A DNA stretch of 64,000 nucleotides, taken from assembly GCA_963716815.1 (NCBI GenBank), contig CAVQUM010000022.1, positions 42,111 to 106,110 on the forward strand, read 5' to 3'. The notes under the pieces were generated by a model. That model did no database searches. It saw only the letters and a program-made list of their open reading frames with translations, and had not been told where the DNA came from. A program made the translations under genes and the position numbers. Origin of the DNA: an uncultured Chloroflexia bacterium. Lineage in GTDB: Bacteria > Chloroflexota > Limnocylindria > Limnocylindrales > CSP1-4. Shown here in pieces: positions 47,804-62,297 of this stretch. How positions within the stretch are numbered: position 1 is the stretch's first letter; each line of letters starts with the position of its first letter.

Positions 47804-47820
47804 GGTCACACGCCTCCTGC

Positions 47821-47873
47821 TTGACGGTATGGTCAATGATATGTAGACTATCGTGTGATGTTTGACTATCACA
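47821..47873 (+). promoter_or_regulatory. Promoter TTGACG-17-TAGACT with palindromes TTGAC-N6-GTCAA and TGTGAT-N8-ATCACA (probable MarR operators)
   Basis: AT-rich divergent intergenic region between the osmC-like gene and marR. Confidence 0.7.
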
Positions 47874-48380
47874 TGCGAAACGAGACCGATCGGGATGAGC
47901 CAGCCCACGGCCGACAGCCCCACGCCAGCGGCTGGGCGCGCTCATGCACCAGCTGCGTGGCGTCGCTGGGCCCGTCGCCCGAGGACCTCGTCGACATCGA
48001 CCTGCCGCGCCACCAGCTGCGCGCGCTGCTTCATCGTGGCCACGCACGGACCCCTCTCGGTGAGCGCCCTGGCCACGGCCACGGAGGCCAGCCTCGCGAG
48101 CACCTCGTCCCTGGCCGAGCGCTTGGTCAAGTCCGGCCACCTGCGGCGCGAGACCGTGCCCCAGGACCGCCGCGTCGTCCTGCTGGTCGCGACCGAGCAG
48201 GGCGAGCGCATCGTGGGCCAATTGCAGTCGAGCTACCGCGCCCGCTTCGACCGGCTCGTCGAGGCCATGAGCCCAGAGGGGCGGGCGGCTCTGGAGGCCG
48301 GCCTCATCGACATGATTCGCGCAGCCGAGGACATCGGCCTGCGCGCCGACCACGACCCGCATCACGGAGATCATCCATGA
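47874..48380 (+). CDS. MarR-family regulator (frameshifted N-terminus)
   Basis: LSVSALA..SLASTSSLAERLVKSG..DRR; ATGA overlap with the ABC ATPase; start uncertain. Confidence 0.8.
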   Translation, partial: CETRPIGMSQPTADSPTPAAGRAHAPAAWRRWARRPRTSSTSTCRATSCARCFIVATHGPLSVSALATATEASLASTSSLAERLVKSGHLRRETVPQDRRVVLLVATEQGERIVGQLQSSYRARFDRLVEAMSPEGRAALEAGLIDMIRAAEDIGLRADHDPHHGDHP

Positions 48381-52996: not shown

Positions 52997-53479
52997 CGTC
53001 CCTCTTTCTGTGCCGTGTCGTCGCGTTCCCAGCGTTCGCGCAGCTTCGGGATCTCGGTCGTCCAGAACTCGGAGAACTCGATCAGCTCGTCGAGGCCGTC
53101 GGTGCGGGTCACGCCACCGGCGGCCCGGATACGTCTGGCCACGCTCGGCCAGCTGGTCGAAGCCGGCCATCTTGGTCGTGGCCATCTCGATCCACCAGTC
53201 CGGGCGGAGGCGGTAGTAGGTCTTGCGGTCACCGACCCGGTGTCGCTCCTCGAGGGCCTCCATCTGGAGCAGCATCCGTGCGCTCGAGCTGATCGAGGCG
53301 CGGCTCATGCCGGTGCCCTTGGCGATGTCGCCAGCCGACTGCTCGGCCGGGTCGCAGGCCATCAGGTAGCCGAACATCTGGCCCGCGGCGCGCGGAGCTC
53401 CGACGGAGGAGAACCAGACGCCGATCCGCTCCACGACCTCGGCCACGGCCGCGTCGCTCCGTGTGCCATTTTCAGTCAT
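52993..53479 (-). CDS. GbsR/MarR-family regulator (frameshift near 53140)
   Basis: [31 protein letters not shown]. Confidence 0.85.
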
Positions 53480-53487
53480 TACTGAAA
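53470..53487. promoter_or_regulatory. Palindrome TTTCAGT-N4-ACTGAAA centred on the regulator start codon
   Basis: Perfect 7-bp arms spanning the ATG at 53477-53479. Confidence 0.75.
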
Positions 53488-53617
53488 GTTCGGTTCATAC
53501 AGTGATTAGAGTACCAGTACGTCCGACGGCCACCAGAGCCATTCGGCCCGACCGAACCGAGCCCGTCCGACCGACGCGCGGGTCCCGACATTGGTTCGCC
53601 GTCGAGCCCGGGCTGCA

Positions 53618-55862: not shown

Positions 55863-55938
55863 TGGCGCGCCCGGCGGGACTCGAACCCACGGCCTTCTGC
55901 TCCGGAGGCAGACGCTCTATCCACTGAGCTACGGGCGC
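55863..55938 (-). tRNA. tRNA-Arg(CCG)
   Basis: GCGCCCG/CGGGCGC acceptor stem, anticodon loop CTCCGGA, GTTCGAG T-loop, encoded CCA. Confidence 0.97.
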
Positions 55939-56450: not shown

Positions 56451-56925
56451 ATGGGAACAATCATCGCGCTCCTCGGAGCACTCCTACTCGGCCTGGTCGC
56501 ATTCGTGGGCGTCTTCTTGGGTGGCATGCGCGCCAAGTGGCCACCCGTGGTCAACGCCGTGCGTCGGCTGAACCTGAAGGTCATGAACCCGCGCCAGATG
56601 GCGACCGCGGGTCAGCCCGGCGCCTACGCCCAGATCCTGCGCCACACCGGCCGGACGTCGGGCAAGACCTACGAGACACCTCTTGGCATCGAGCCCACCG
56701 AGGACGGCTTCGTCATCGCCCTCGTCTACGGCAACGACACCCAGTGGCTGCGCAACGTGCTCGCGGCCGGCCGCGCGGAGGTCGTGCGTGACGACGTCAG
56801 CTACGCCGTCGATCGCCCCGAGGTCGTGCCTGTGGCCGACGTCGTCGACTACTTCAGGTCCTCGGATCGGCGCTTGTTCGGCCTCTTCGGCGTGGAGAAG
56901 TGCCTCCGGCTCTACCATGCCGAGC

Positions 56926-56933
<8 letters not shown>
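56451..56933 (+). CDS. Deazaflavin (F420)-dependent nitroreductase-family protein
   Basis: N-terminal TM; [23 protein letters not shown]. Confidence 0.8.
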
Positions 56934-58332
<1,399 letters not shown>

Positions 58333-58391
58333 CCGGGTCCGCGCCGCAGGCCTGTGCAGGGGCAGCACCCCGCGCGGTCCCCAGAATCGAG

Positions 58392-58418
58392 GCGACCCCG
58401 TCGAAACGGGGTCGCTTT
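58392..58418. terminator. Hairpin terminator for fumC, probably bidirectional
   Basis: GCGACCCCGT-CGAA-ACGGGGTCGC-TTT. Confidence 0.75.
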
Positions 58419-58559
58419 AACTGTCCCGGCCGAACCGGAGCGAACTCCGGATCTTCTGCCACGTCGCAAGGGCATCTATGACGCCGGCTTCACCGGCTAC
58501 CCTAACCCAACCTACCCATGACCTTGCGTCTAGGCCAGTAGTGCTGTCGAGCAGCACGG
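58392..58559 (-). ncRNA. Candidate ~170-nt structured small RNA
   Basis: Own promoter TTGAGT-18-TACTAT with AT-rich upstream DNA; five helices; two UUCG tetraloops on the minus strand; no ORF with an RBS. Confidence 0.6.
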
Positions 58560-58672
58560 GGGTGATAGTAACGGCACCTCGGTCAGAAACTCAAGGGTTT
58601 ATTCACATTGCATAGATGAAGGTTCCATAACATTTCGCACCGGACGATGCATTGCAGCGTACTGAAGTGCGC

Positions 58673-59375
58673 TCAGGTGGCTGTCGCGATGGCCTCGCCG
58701 CAGGTCGATGGAGCCGGTGAAGAGGACCTCGCCCAGGATGACCCCGGCCGCGCCCGCGGCACGCAGGGTGCGCACTTGCTCGAGCGTGTCGATGCCGCCG
58801 GCGACGAGCACTTCGGCATCGAGGTCCGCGGCAGCCCGGCCGACCAGCTCGACGCCATCCTCGCCGCGGACGTGTGAGAAGACGAAGCGACGCACGCCGG
58901 CGCGGTGGAGCTCAGCGATGAGCTCGTCGAGCGTCGGTTCGGCCCCTTGCCAGGGGTAGCCGTGCAGGCTGTCGGGCCGGGCGTCGAGGCCGATCGCCAG
59001 CCAGTCGCCGCCGATGCGCAGGCTGTCCGCGAGCAACTCGGCGTCCTCGGCCACGGCCCAGAGTGGCATGACCACACGCGTGGCTCCCGCGGCATAGGCG
59101 ATCTCGATCTGCTCGGGCCCATCGACCCCGCCCGCCAGCTGCAGTGGCTTGGCCACGGCCCGGGCGATGGCGCCGATGGCGTCGAGGTTGGCCGGCCGGC
59201 CTGCCGCCGCTCCGTCGAGGTCGACCACGTGGATGGCCGGAGCGCCACAGGCAGCGAAGACCTCCGCGATCGCAGCCGGCCGATCGGTGGGTGTCCCGCT
59301 GCCCGCAGCGGCCCCCGGCCACCACACCAGCCGGGAGCGGCCGGCCGCGACGTCGATGCTGGGGATGACGTACAT
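58673..59375 (-). CDS. Divergent HisA/HisF-family TIM-barrel protein (3-prime frameshift near 58700)
   Basis: IPSID, HVVDLDGA, LQLAGG, GLDAR, AGGI, GVILG. Confidence 0.75.
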
Positions 59376-62220: not shown

Positions 62221-62297
62221 GGACCCGTAGTGTAGTGGCCCAACACGCCAGCCTGTCACGCTGGAGATCGCCGGTTCGAATCCGGTCGGGTCCGCCA
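62221..62297 (+). tRNA. tRNA-Asp(GTC)
   Basis: GGACCCG/CGGGTCC acceptor stem, anticodon loop CTGTCAC, GTTCGAA, CCA. Confidence 0.97.

Follow-up and report, generated by a model that had tools for sequence, protein, structure and literature searches.

The stretch of DNA analysed here, 64 kb long and called the window throughout, comes from a member of the Chloroflexota. On its minus strand, a block of about 175-179 nt (58381-58559) constitutes an RNA gene that is conserved with sharp edges. The gene lies between a class II fumarase gene (56683-58332, plus strand), which is convergent with it, and its upstream neighbour, a hisA-like gene of the His_biosynth family (58599-59375, minus strand); these are the flanking genes that the initial annotation of this DNA had named. 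In distant members of the genus, conservation starts at 58557 and stops at 58381, and the block 58381-58557 is sharply bounded in 34 of 36 other genus genomes. A second family keeps the core of the RNA in all 24 of its genomes studied. The 5' end of the RNA is predicted to lie at 58557-58559, and the 3' end probably lies just past a terminal hairpin.

Among the 131 loci with enough flanking sequence, 55 carry a tRNA-Arg(CCG) gene downstream on the same strand at a distance of at most 450 nt, and no other type of tRNA was seen downstream of the RNA in this set. The tRNA-Arg(CCG) gene of the window and of close relatives lies 2.4 kb away, beyond the convergent fumarase gene, and the RNA there is unchanged. 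Of 13 loci examined, 12 have a cyclophilin gene upstream in the same orientation. The lineage of the window has no cyclophilin gene at the locus and retains the RNA. At loci where the spacer before the tRNA is short, -10-like hexamers can be read in this spacer by eye.

The RNA gene has its own promoter. The hexamers TTGAGT (58589-58594) and TACTAT (58565-58570), separated by an 18-nt spacer, are read on the minus strand exactly as first annotated. Upstream of the -35 hexamer, an AT-rich, UP-element-like patch (58595-58640) overlaps the last codons of the His_biosynth-family reading frame. Its GC content is 38% over 50 nt, the value for the window being 69.4%, and it was correctly described as one of the most AT-rich patches; only three places in the 64 kb are equally AT-rich over 50 nt. 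In homologs, GC content averages 54% over the 22 nt that precede the -35 hexamer and 68% over the spacer. The -35 hexamer is conserved across homologs, and TTGAG is kept in 30 of 30 genus loci, in which the spacer is variable. Of 77 non-redundant homologs, 56 have the pattern TTGnnn-17/18-TAnnnT at a fixed distance; 200 shuffles give a mean of 2.1 (maximum 9), and the reverse complement gives 2. Under relaxed hexamer rules, a -35/-10 pair is present in 71 of the 77, and five of the six misses belong to the small-genome family, in which TTGGAA-17-TATCCT lay outside the scanned stretch. Agreement with the sigma-70 consensus extends to only 8 of 12 positions, and a simple promoter/terminator scanner reported neither a promoter nor a terminator at the RNA locus. 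The earlier claim of an own, strong promoter is therefore upheld as to its existence, and its strength has to be argued from conservation and the AT-rich patch rather than from the consensus match.

At the other end of the gene, a 10-bp GC hairpin with a UUCG loop (58392-58415) is followed by the U-poor tail CUCGAUUCUGG (58381-58391). Seven of its ten pairs change on both sides among homologs, and a hairpin of 10-14 bp occupies this position in 141 of 142 distinct homologs. The hairpin and its tail are likely an intrinsic terminator. A strict terminator scan did not list the hairpin because its U run is weak; tails in the family f2 are better than that of the window, AUCUAUUUU being an example. 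Direct support for transcription comes from assembled contigs of four RNA libraries, a source that may include DNA and from which strand, level and true ends are not readable. Contigs from three studies end 0-8 nt from 58559, a weak hint for the 5' end, one contig continues through the promoter, and two extend 41-95 nt beyond the hairpin.

The boundaries and neighbours of the gene bear on a possible role in cis, in which the RNA would be a leader that regulates tRNA-Arg(CCG) through termination, or an element at the 3' end of the mRNA that precedes it, the cyclophilin or the hisA-like one. The recurrence of the tRNA downstream and of the cyclophilin gene upstream, both on the same strand, speaks for such a role. 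However, the RNA has a conserved promoter of its own, the hairpin varies on its own, apart from the conserved core, and -10-like hexamers, read by eye, stand just before the tRNA. Moreover, the RNA is maintained where the tRNA lies past the fumarase gene and in the lineage that has no cyclophilin gene there. We consider a cis element very improbable.

On the minus strand, the sequence folds into helices that are recovered among homologs. The first is the 5' hairpin P0, GUGCUG-CUCGA-CAGCAC (58541-58557), in which five of six pairs change on both sides and 86.2% of alignment cells are paired. Helix P1 joins ACUG-g-CC (58533-58539) to GG-a-CAGU (58420-58426), and both arms covary; the first pair is G-C in 27 sequences, A-U in 19 and G-U in 10. 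The 20-21 alignment rows that are unpaired in P1 are f3-type sequences, which have a different P1 (GAUUC/GAAUC, read by eye). P2 is formed by CUAG-a-CGCAAGG-u-CAU (58518-58533) and AUG-c-CCUUGCG-a-C-g-UGG (58459-58475), again with covariation on both arms. Nine of its 14 pairs have changed on both sides, and 95.8-96.6% of cells are paired. The helix that encloses the G-rich tract reads CGCAAGGUCAU/AUGCCCUUGCG. Hairpin P3, GCCGG-UGAAG-CCGGC (58483-58497), has three of five pairs that change on both sides; its variants include GUCGG/CCGAC and GUCGC/GCGAC, and GUGCGG-GAAA-CCGCGC in the family f3. The variable hairpin P4, GAUCCGGAG-UUCG-CUCCGGUUC (58432-58453), contains CCGGAG-UUCG-CUCCGG (58450-58435) and shows two-sided changes in seven of eight pairs. 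P4 is missing from f3; elsewhere its length and sequence depend on the lineage, and its indels are not multiples of three.

Taken by itself, the sequence of the window folds only moderately better than its shuffles (z = -2.67; 4 of 200 shuffles are as good). The comparative data are stronger. In the core alignment, 93.9% of cells are paired; shuffles reach 84.0%, and sliding the partner column lowers the value to 32-39%. Of the 19 core pairs, 12 show compensatory, two-sided changes. For the full-length fold, the corresponding value is 87.2% against 76.4%, and 33 of 48 pairs have changed on both sides. The hairpins, UUCG loops, enclosing helix and unpaired tract drawn in the initial annotation can all be read in the minus strand at the same positions. 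Conserved, covarying homologs are present, and each of the helices drawn is backed by their covariation. Many of the pairs also discriminate between strands, since a G-U pair would be an A-C mismatch on the other strand. Examples are found at columns 54/128 (GU 21), 58/122 (GU 17, UG 8) and 202/216 (UG 21). Together with the promoter and the likely terminator, they fix the strand of the RNA as minus.

The same alignment argues against a small protein gene. Two frames are open in the window: a 55-aa frame on the plus strand (58354-58521), whose last 19 codons are GC-rich at third positions in the manner typical of local genes, and a leaderless 46-aa frame on the minus strand, whose GTG (58557) coincides with the predicted transcription start. 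In relatives, however, both frames are shifted by indels of 1 and 2 nt, which lie in the variable hairpin, in P3 and in the second spacer of the G tracts, and because these indels are not multiples of three, coding is excluded on both strands. Past the indels, the plus frame offers no conserved start codon. The minus frame is rich in A/U-ending codons, an unusual choice for a genome with 69% GC, and it gave no Pfam match in a scan that covered the minus-strand frame. Substitutions are compensatory in helices and not periodic. The probability that either frame is a gene is negligible.

The RNA matches no described family. At gathering thresholds, Rfam models found only two tRNAs in the whole window. 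At E values up to 10, the region 58250-58750 gave three chance matches, two of them on the plus strand; the sole listing on the minus strand was isrG (8.4 bits, E 5.8), which covers the terminal hairpin only. Ten diverse homologs yielded tRNAs and sub-threshold matches (E at least 0.05), several of them confined to the end with the terminal hairpin. A diverged SRP RNA, RNase P RNA or tmRNA was also considered and rejected, because each of these is found elsewhere in all five genomes: RF00169, RF01854, RF00010 and RF00023 match other loci in five of five, RF01854 above its cut-off in four of five. In those parts of the literature on Limnocylindria RNAs and on the loop motif strings that could be consulted, nothing on this RNA was found. 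An unannotated small RNA of about 170 nt with its own promoter had been proposed; the gene is non-coding, measures about 175 nt and carries a promoter and a likely terminator. Since no Rfam family matches the RNA of the window or the ten homologs, its designation as a new class holds. We are highly confident that it is a real gene for a structured, independently transcribed RNA of an undescribed family.

Homologs are present in 96 of 151 sampled genomes of the uncultured Chloroflexota class Limnocylindria, with one copy per genome, and none were found in 135 other Chloroflexota genomes. By family, the RNA occurs in 42 of 44 f1 genomes, 6 of 6 f2 genomes, 47 of 50 f3 genomes and 0 of 49 f47 genomes. 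The f2 genomes measure only 1.0-1.4 Mb and have kept the RNA. The retention of one copy per genome in f1, f2 and f3 looks like that of a housekeeping gene. A phage or other mobile origin was rejected, as viral contigs gave 0 matches.

Some of the absences have been followed up. The RNA that is "missing" from one genome (G010) corresponds to a contig break inside the neighbouring tRNA, and three genomes of 81-95% completeness (G024, G143, G161) contain no convincing copy. In G161, a look-alike of 58 nt (E 0.02 for 21 kb, or about 2 for the whole genome) resembles the start of a reading frame and was dropped. For f47, relaxed thresholds in five genomes returned chance-level matches only, with a best E of 1.06, and a diverged copy in this family was rejected on that basis. 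The syntenic place in f47 was sought through the tRNA and through cyclophilin. The tRNA query gave other arginine tRNAs and the tRNA pattern had 0 matches in three genomes; cyclophilin had 0 matches in five genomes at E 1e-20, a threshold that is possibly too strict. Since f47 is without the RNA, the RNA is not indispensable to the whole lineage.

At the centre of the molecule lies the internal loop that P2 encloses together with P3. Its 5' strand, GGG-UA-GG-UU-GGG-UUA-GGG-UA (58498-58517, minus strand), is unpaired and C-free, and its 3' strand is GUCAUAG (58476-58482), with the consensus G-U-n-A-n-A-G. The loop consensus is GGGUAGGU(n)GGGUnAGGGUA on the 5' side and GUnAnAG on the 3' side. 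Across homologs, the 5' strand is 20-23 nt long and contains four G tracts and not a single C. None of the 11 tract Gs varies in any of the 56 distinct cores, and the G, both As and the final G of the 3' strand are likewise constant. These 56 cores were found without the motif as a search pattern; the seeds of the search model were motif-selected, which favours G invariance, yet no intermediate-score match occurred among the 151 genomes. The spacers behave differently from the tracts. The second spacer is 1-3 nt long, and the third reads UUA, UAA or UCA, with U as the middle base in 28 cores, A in 18 and C in 10.

The tract pattern G3-UA-G2-U(0-2 n)-G3-UnA-G3, present in all 56 cores, provides the four tracts of at least two Gs and the short spacers that a G-quadruplex requires. 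Its tract Gs are constrained and its spacers are free in both length and sequence, as a quadruplex would also demand. The loop could form a two-tier G-quadruplex, a reading of the sequence that fits the combination of invariant Gs and variable spacers. ViennaRNA, run with quadruplexes allowed on six homologs and on the isolated loop, left the fold unchanged and predicted no G-quadruplex; its energy model disfavours two-tier quadruplexes.

A resemblance to 6S RNA or Ms1, as proposed in the initial annotation, is supported by neither the covariance model nor the shape, synteny or distribution of the RNA. As a functional analogue, the RNA would bind RNA polymerase, through open-promoter mimicry or otherwise, and tune transcription. 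Like 6S RNA (SsrS; RF00013), which is about 180 nt long, it is a standalone single-copy gene of 150-180 nt with its own promoter, and its helices are separated by a large internal loop; the AT-rich patch fits as well. The Rfam 6S model has no match among the genomes of the class (0/31; 0/13; 0/151) and matches 30 of 108 other Chloroflexota genomes, and other universal small RNAs are accounted for at other loci. This model is insensitive, detecting 6S in only 4-5 of 14 control genomes, and its silence in the class therefore says little.

Against such an analogue, the 6S model gives no score to the RNA even at E values up to 10 (58250-58750). 6S RNA is an extended rod, in which a central bubble lies between long helices on both sides. 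Here, in contrast, P3, the helix beyond the loop, has 5-6 bp and a loop of 4-5 nt in place of a long stem, opposite about 20 bp of P1 and P2, and the RNA is branched in most lineages. The 6S bubble is only loosely conserved in sequence, whereas the loop of this RNA is invariant and C-free. Gene neighbourhoods also differ. Three canonical Chloroflexota 6S loci have no tRNA within 1.5 kb, and one scanned 6S locus adjoins genes for an Ada-type methyltransferase and a GH25 lysozyme and not for cyclophilin; positional homology with canonical 6S was rejected. A complementary distribution was rejected as well, because f47 has neither this RNA nor canonical 6S. Ms1 of mycobacteria is an abundant RNA of about 300 nt that binds the RNA polymerase core and is, as far as is known, confined to the Actinobacteria. 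The present RNA shares with it a small size, a standalone gene and a lineage without recognisable 6S. It differs in belonging to the Chloroflexota, and no Rfam family matches the minus strand meaningfully; Rfam presumably includes an Ms1 model, and we take the negative result to cover Ms1. A 6S or Ms1 analogue is, in our judgement, unlikely.

The G-rich strand of the loop had also been suggested to pair with C-rich targets. In a base-pairing regulatory RNA, this exposed G/U-rich strand would be a seed for C-rich stretches of mRNA. The standalone promoter and the likely terminator would suit such an RNA, as would the long stretch that is single-stranded under standard pairing, and the G/U content permits wobble pairing with many C/A-rich sites. 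Yet the organism's own genome (78% complete) contains, outside the gene, one complementary 11-mer and 12 complementary 10-mers, fewer than the 61 +/- 44 for composition-matched shuffled targets, so that targets are not in excess among perfect 10- and 11-mers. A shorter seed of 6-8 nt is compatible with the data. In addition, a spacer within the would-be seed varies between 1 and 3 nt and the flanking Gs are constant; such a change in length would break the register with a conserved target. About 30 invariant loop nucleotides over three families are, moreover, atypical for antisense small RNAs. Seed pairing is accordingly about as doubtful as the polymerase-binding analogue.

Alternatively, the invariant loop could be the ligand pocket of an orphan aptamer or the active site of a ribozyme rather than a protein site. 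Invariant nucleotides concentrated in an internal loop between covarying helices are typical of riboswitch aptamers and ribozymes, and the same concentration is seen here. The four G tracts could also form a quadruplex platform, and such platforms bind planar ligands in synthetic aptamers. However, the RNA has no expression platform and no regulated downstream gene of the kind that marks a riboswitch or attenuation leader: the next gene in the window is convergent, and the only recurrent neighbour on the same strand is the tRNA. The sequence of the terminator is freely variable and the strands on the aptamer side are constant, which makes a conserved alternative pairing unlikely. Unlike many self-cleaving ribozymes, the RNA is present in a single copy per genome and is absent from viral contigs. 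An aptamer or ribozyme is improbable, if marginally less so than a seed-pairing RNA.

The explanation that we favour, tentatively and as a whole with a chance somewhat below even, is an undescribed lineage-specific structured RNA that acts in trans as a scaffold or decoy through its G-rich loop. The RNA is transcribed on the minus strand from its own sigma-70-type promoter, with a predicted start at about 58557-58559 and an end after the hairpin at 58392-58415. The transcript folds into P0, a long arm consisting of P1, P2, the internal loop and P3, and the terminator hairpin, with P4 branching off in most lineages. The functional part would be the internal loop, in which a C-free 5' strand with four G tracts faces a purine-rich 3' strand of 7 nt, clamped by two covarying helices. 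In this model, the loop would take up a definite fold outside Watson-Crick pairing, for which the simplest candidate is a two-tier G-quadruplex that stacks between P2 and P3. A conserved partner in the cell, more plausibly a protein than a small molecule, would bind to this fold, and the RNA would serve as a stable, probably abundant scaffold or decoy. We do not think that it works through an antisense seed or has a cis-regulatory role. A more specific version of this scaffold model is possible, though less probable. In it, the core would be a naturally occurring helix-quadruplex-helix junction. A two-tier quadruplex, stacked between P2 and P3 and capped by the extra Gs together with the invariant purines on the 3' side, would serve as the recognition element of a housekeeping-type RNA-protein or RNA-ligand complex.

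Several known RNAs resemble parts of this model. The raiA motif RNA and OLE RNA are orphan structured non-coding RNAs, whose function cannot be deduced from gene context. Like the present RNA, they are lineage-restricted and mostly single-copy, with covarying helices and conserved loops. In contrast to them, it is smaller, comes from a different phylum, has one G-rich loop as its core, and resembles them in neither sequence nor structure, no Rfam model matching it. Domain IV of SRP RNA (4.5S-type) shares a long irregular hairpin with conserved loops near the apex, and the f3 apex carries a GAAA tetraloop; its loop sequences are, however, unrelated, and true SRP RNA is found elsewhere in the same genomes. 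The synthetic Spinach- and Mango-type quadruplex aptamers have an architecture of a helix, a G-rich junction and a second helix, which is also the arrangement here, with four tracts and spacers of 1-3 nt. Those aptamers were selected in the laboratory, whereas the quadruplex of the present junction is putative and is not predicted by ViennaRNA.

The novelty of this RNA is at the level of the RNA family. It fits no described family, and we claim no new kind of mechanism. If the quadruplex reading is true, this would be the first class of bacterial non-coding RNA with a function built on an RNA G-quadruplex; we know of no earlier bacterial class with a quadruplex-based function. With its invariant tracts, variable spacers and two transplantable flanking helices, the loop offers a natural test case for bacterial RNA G-quadruplex modules. 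The covariance model from this analysis allows the RNA to be annotated in metagenomes. Soils and lakes harbour abundant Limnocylindria (formerly CSP1-4/Ellin6529), which have hardly been brought into culture, and for this reason nothing is, to our knowledge, known of their RNA biology. A single-copy RNA with about 30 unchanging loop nucleotides in three families, including one with genomes of 1.0-1.4 Mb, points to a conserved role in these bacteria that annotation has missed.

The minus strand very probably carries a genuine RNA gene, structured and transcribed on its own, whose family has no description in Rfam. When this strand was re-read, every sequence feature of the initial annotation was present at the positions it had assigned, neighboring genes included. 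An AT-rich patch (38% GC over 50 nt versus 69.4% window-wide), one of three such places in the 64 kb, is found with a -35 hexamer TTGAGT (58594-58589), an 18-nt spacer and a -10 hexamer TACTAT (58570-58565). The RNA opens with the P0 hairpin GUGCUG/CAGCAC (58557-58541). A long helix encloses the G-rich tract GGGUAGGUUGGGUUAGGGUA (58517-58498) and the short GCCGG hairpin P3 (58497-58483), and a CCGGAG-UUCG-CUCCGG hairpin and a terminal 10-bp GC hairpin with a UUCG loop (58415-58392) are also present. A class II fumarase gene (56683-58332, plus strand) is convergent to the RNA, a hisA-like gene of the His_biosynth family (58599-59375, minus strand) lies upstream, and a DUF885 gene is found farther upstream, beyond it. 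Of the other AT-rich places, 47820-47880 resembles a divergent, operator-bearing promoter: GACTATC-type half-sites recur there, alongside hexamers similar to TTGAC/TAGACT. The third, 53461-53520, contains the inverted repeat TTTCAGTCATTACTGAAA and may be a bidirectional promoter region or an operator.

The promoter hexamers agree with the sigma-70 consensus at only 8 of 12 positions; a simple promoter and terminator scanner lists neither element at the locus. Among relatives in the genus, the two hexamers alone are constant upstream of the conserved block, and the spacer changes. In 77 homologs with mutual identity below 93%, TTGnnn-17/18-TAnnnT occurs in 56, compared with a mean of 2.1 in shuffled sequences (maximum 9 in 200) and 2 in the reverse complement. 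The distance from the -10 end to the G-rich motif is 38-56 nt (38-50 nt in 55 of the 56, with a mode of 43-45). Relaxed hexamers (TT[G/C/T]nnn, [T/C]AnnnT) qualify 71 of the 77, and five of the six misses belong to the small-genome family, whose TTGGAA-17-TATCCT lies outside the scanned stretch. Of 142 distinct homologs, all but one carry a 3'-terminal GC hairpin of 10-14 bp. Many helix pairs are G-U in part of the homologs, where the opposite strand would give A-C mismatches. The promoter, the likely terminator and these G-U pairs thus assign the RNA to the minus strand. Contigs covering the RNA were present in all four RNA libraries examined, each from a different study. One contig begins exactly at 58559, one stops 2 nt and another 8 nt beyond it, and the fourth reads through the promoter; two extend 41-95 nt beyond the hairpin. 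These contigs are uninformative on strand, level and true ends and may include DNA, and they provide weak evidence that the RNA is expressed.

The fold of the single sequence is only moderately better than that of shuffles (z = -2.67). From 77 sequences, RNAalifold predicted the long helix, lengthened to 14 pairs; of the 25 pairs it proposed in all, 18 show two-sided changes. In the core (P2 and P3), 93.9% of cells are paired versus 84.0% in shuffles, none of 500 reaching that value, and sliding the partner columns leaves 32-39%; both partners vary in 12 of 19 pairs. For the full-length structure (P0, P1, P2, P3, P4 and terminator), 87.2% of cells are paired versus 76.4%, and 33 of 48 pairs carry compensatory changes. 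The molecule thus consists of a 5' hairpin, a long arm (P1-P2-loop-P3) and a likely terminator, with a variable side hairpin, P4, in most lineages. In family f3, P4 is absent, P1 is different as read by eye, and P3 is capped by GAAA.

Two open reading frames overlap the RNA: a 46-aa frame on the minus strand, starting at GTG 58557, and an antisense 55-aa frame on the plus strand (58354-58521), whose last 19 codons have gene-like GC-rich third positions. Indels of 1 and 2 nt among relatives, in the variable hairpin, the spacer between G tracts 2 and 3, and P3, shift both frames, and helix substitutions are compensatory and without periodicity. A protein-coding reading was therefore rejected, and the chance of a small protein gene is negligible. 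The 55-aa frame is not conserved, and its coding look is a by-product of RNA base composition. It illustrates that the strand opposite a structured RNA can carry a spurious coding signal.

A DNA search with 241 nt matched 59 of 61 genomes: the organism's own, where the RNA is single-copy, 34 of 36 others of the genus, and all 24 from a second family, whose genomes span 1.0-1.4 Mb. In distant genus members, similarity begins at 58557, where the RNA is predicted to start, and stops at 58381, the end of the tail past the last hairpin. Scanning one genome per species for an exact pattern gave at least 116 matching stretches. Almost all of the 80 matches listed come from organisms recorded as Chloroflexi, Chloroflexota, Chloroflexia, Limnocylindria or Limnocylindrales; three carry the label Steroidobacteraceae and another three Anaerolineaceae. 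Run on 151 Chloroflexota genomes of 80% completeness or more, the covariance model of the core, R1, detected a single copy in each of 14, all in three Limnocylindria families, and no match in 135 Chloroflexota genomes of other families. The RNA-bearing organisms are Chloroflexota of the class Limnocylindria. Conserved homologs, which the initial annotation had proposed to seek, occur in 96 of 151 genomes of the class: 42/44 in family f1, 6/6 in f2, 47/50 in f3, 0/49 in f47 and 0/1 in f48. The f3 count includes the unpublished genomes G317 and G291, without which f3 becomes 45/48 and the total 94/149; nothing else depends on them. Under relaxed thresholds, five f47 genomes yielded chance-level matches only. 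In genome G010, a contig end falls inside the neighboring tRNA; in G024, G143 and G161 a copy was searched for and none found. Viral contigs gave no match.

Of 13 loci examined, 12 have a cyclophilin-type isomerase gene directly upstream in the same orientation; only the window differs, its hisA-like gene adjoining the RNA promoter. Downstream, 55 of the 131 loci whose flank is long enough have a same-strand tRNA-Arg(CCG) no more than 450 nt away, a count that includes near-duplicates and the 28 genus loci of sufficient flank, none with a tRNA there. In the window, this tRNA (55866-55938, minus strand) is separated from the RNA by the fumarase gene. Because these neighbors recur and the genes farther downstream vary from locus to locus, the ancestral order is cyclophilin, RNA, tRNA-Arg(CCG). 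The RNA is unchanged at loci where either neighbor has moved, and a cis element is very improbable. In those 12 loci (among L023, L026, L167 and L170-L180), the RNA is separated from the hisA-like or DUF885 genes by one or two cyclophilin-type genes. In the window (58599-58700, minus strand), the hisA-like frame runs about 35 codons beyond its Pfam domain into the AT-rich patch and stops 4 nt before the -35 hexamer. It looks like a deletion fused the gene end to the promoter region. At locus L190 (G143:C72, 1498-1573, minus strand), ARAGORN calls a tRNA-Arg with anticodon GCG, adjoining tRNA-Ser(GCU) and 90% identical to the window tRNA-Arg(CCG). This anticodon, unusual for arginine, may reflect a calling error or a genuine variant. 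A second window tRNA gene (62221-62294, plus strand; Rfam tRNA, 69 bits) lies close to the window end.

No Rfam family matched the RNA in the window or in ten diverse homologs, which upholds, at the Rfam level, the proposal of a new class. SRP RNA, RNase P RNA and tmRNA were each located elsewhere in five of five genomes. The literature searched held no account of the RNA; most subscription journals and all bioRxiv supplements fell outside its scope, and a description there is possible. A 6S-like polymerase binder had also been suggested. The 6S model matches nothing in class Limnocylindria and 30 of 108 other Chloroflexota genomes, which leaves room for an analogue. However, the RNA has no score against that model, the helix past its loop is just 5-6 bp, canonical Chloroflexota 6S genes sit in a different neighborhood, and f47 (e.g. 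G215, G216, G217, G219, G232) lacks both RNAs (canonical 6S, 0/49). This identity is therefore quite unlikely.

The G-rich loop was compared in 65 homologs (56 distinct cores) found by similarity or covariance-model searches without the motif pattern. The four tracts hold 11 Gs, none of which varies; CAU ahead of the G-rich stretch, UAG behind it and G, A, A, G on the 3' strand are likewise constant. A caveat is that pattern-selected sequences served as seeds for the covariance model. A spacer of 1-3 nt follows the second tract, and the middle base of the third spacer is U in 28, A in 18 and C in 10. No model match fell between the threshold and 71.6 bits among 151 class genomes, so intermediate variants were not merely missed. 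C is absent from the approximately 30 loop nucleotides, in a genome whose GC content is 69%. Since a C-free strand of 20-23 nt can hardly fold on itself save by G-quartets or G-U pairs, the simplest model would place a two-tier quadruplex between P2 and P3, a structure that ViennaRNA does not predict.

The initial annotation also envisaged pairing with C-rich targets, and the organism's genome shows no excess of sites complementary to the loop strand. Because of this, and because the Gs are invariant, spacer length is free and two covarying helices clamp the loop, a structured binding site fits better than an antisense seed. A base-pairing small RNA is thus about as improbable as the 6S analogue, and a small-molecule-binding or catalytic RNA is unlikely, if slightly less so. 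The conservation pattern fits a structured binding site, and for this reason we tentatively prefer, at a little under an even chance, a trans-acting RNA. It would serve as a scaffold or decoy, its loop binding a putative conserved partner.
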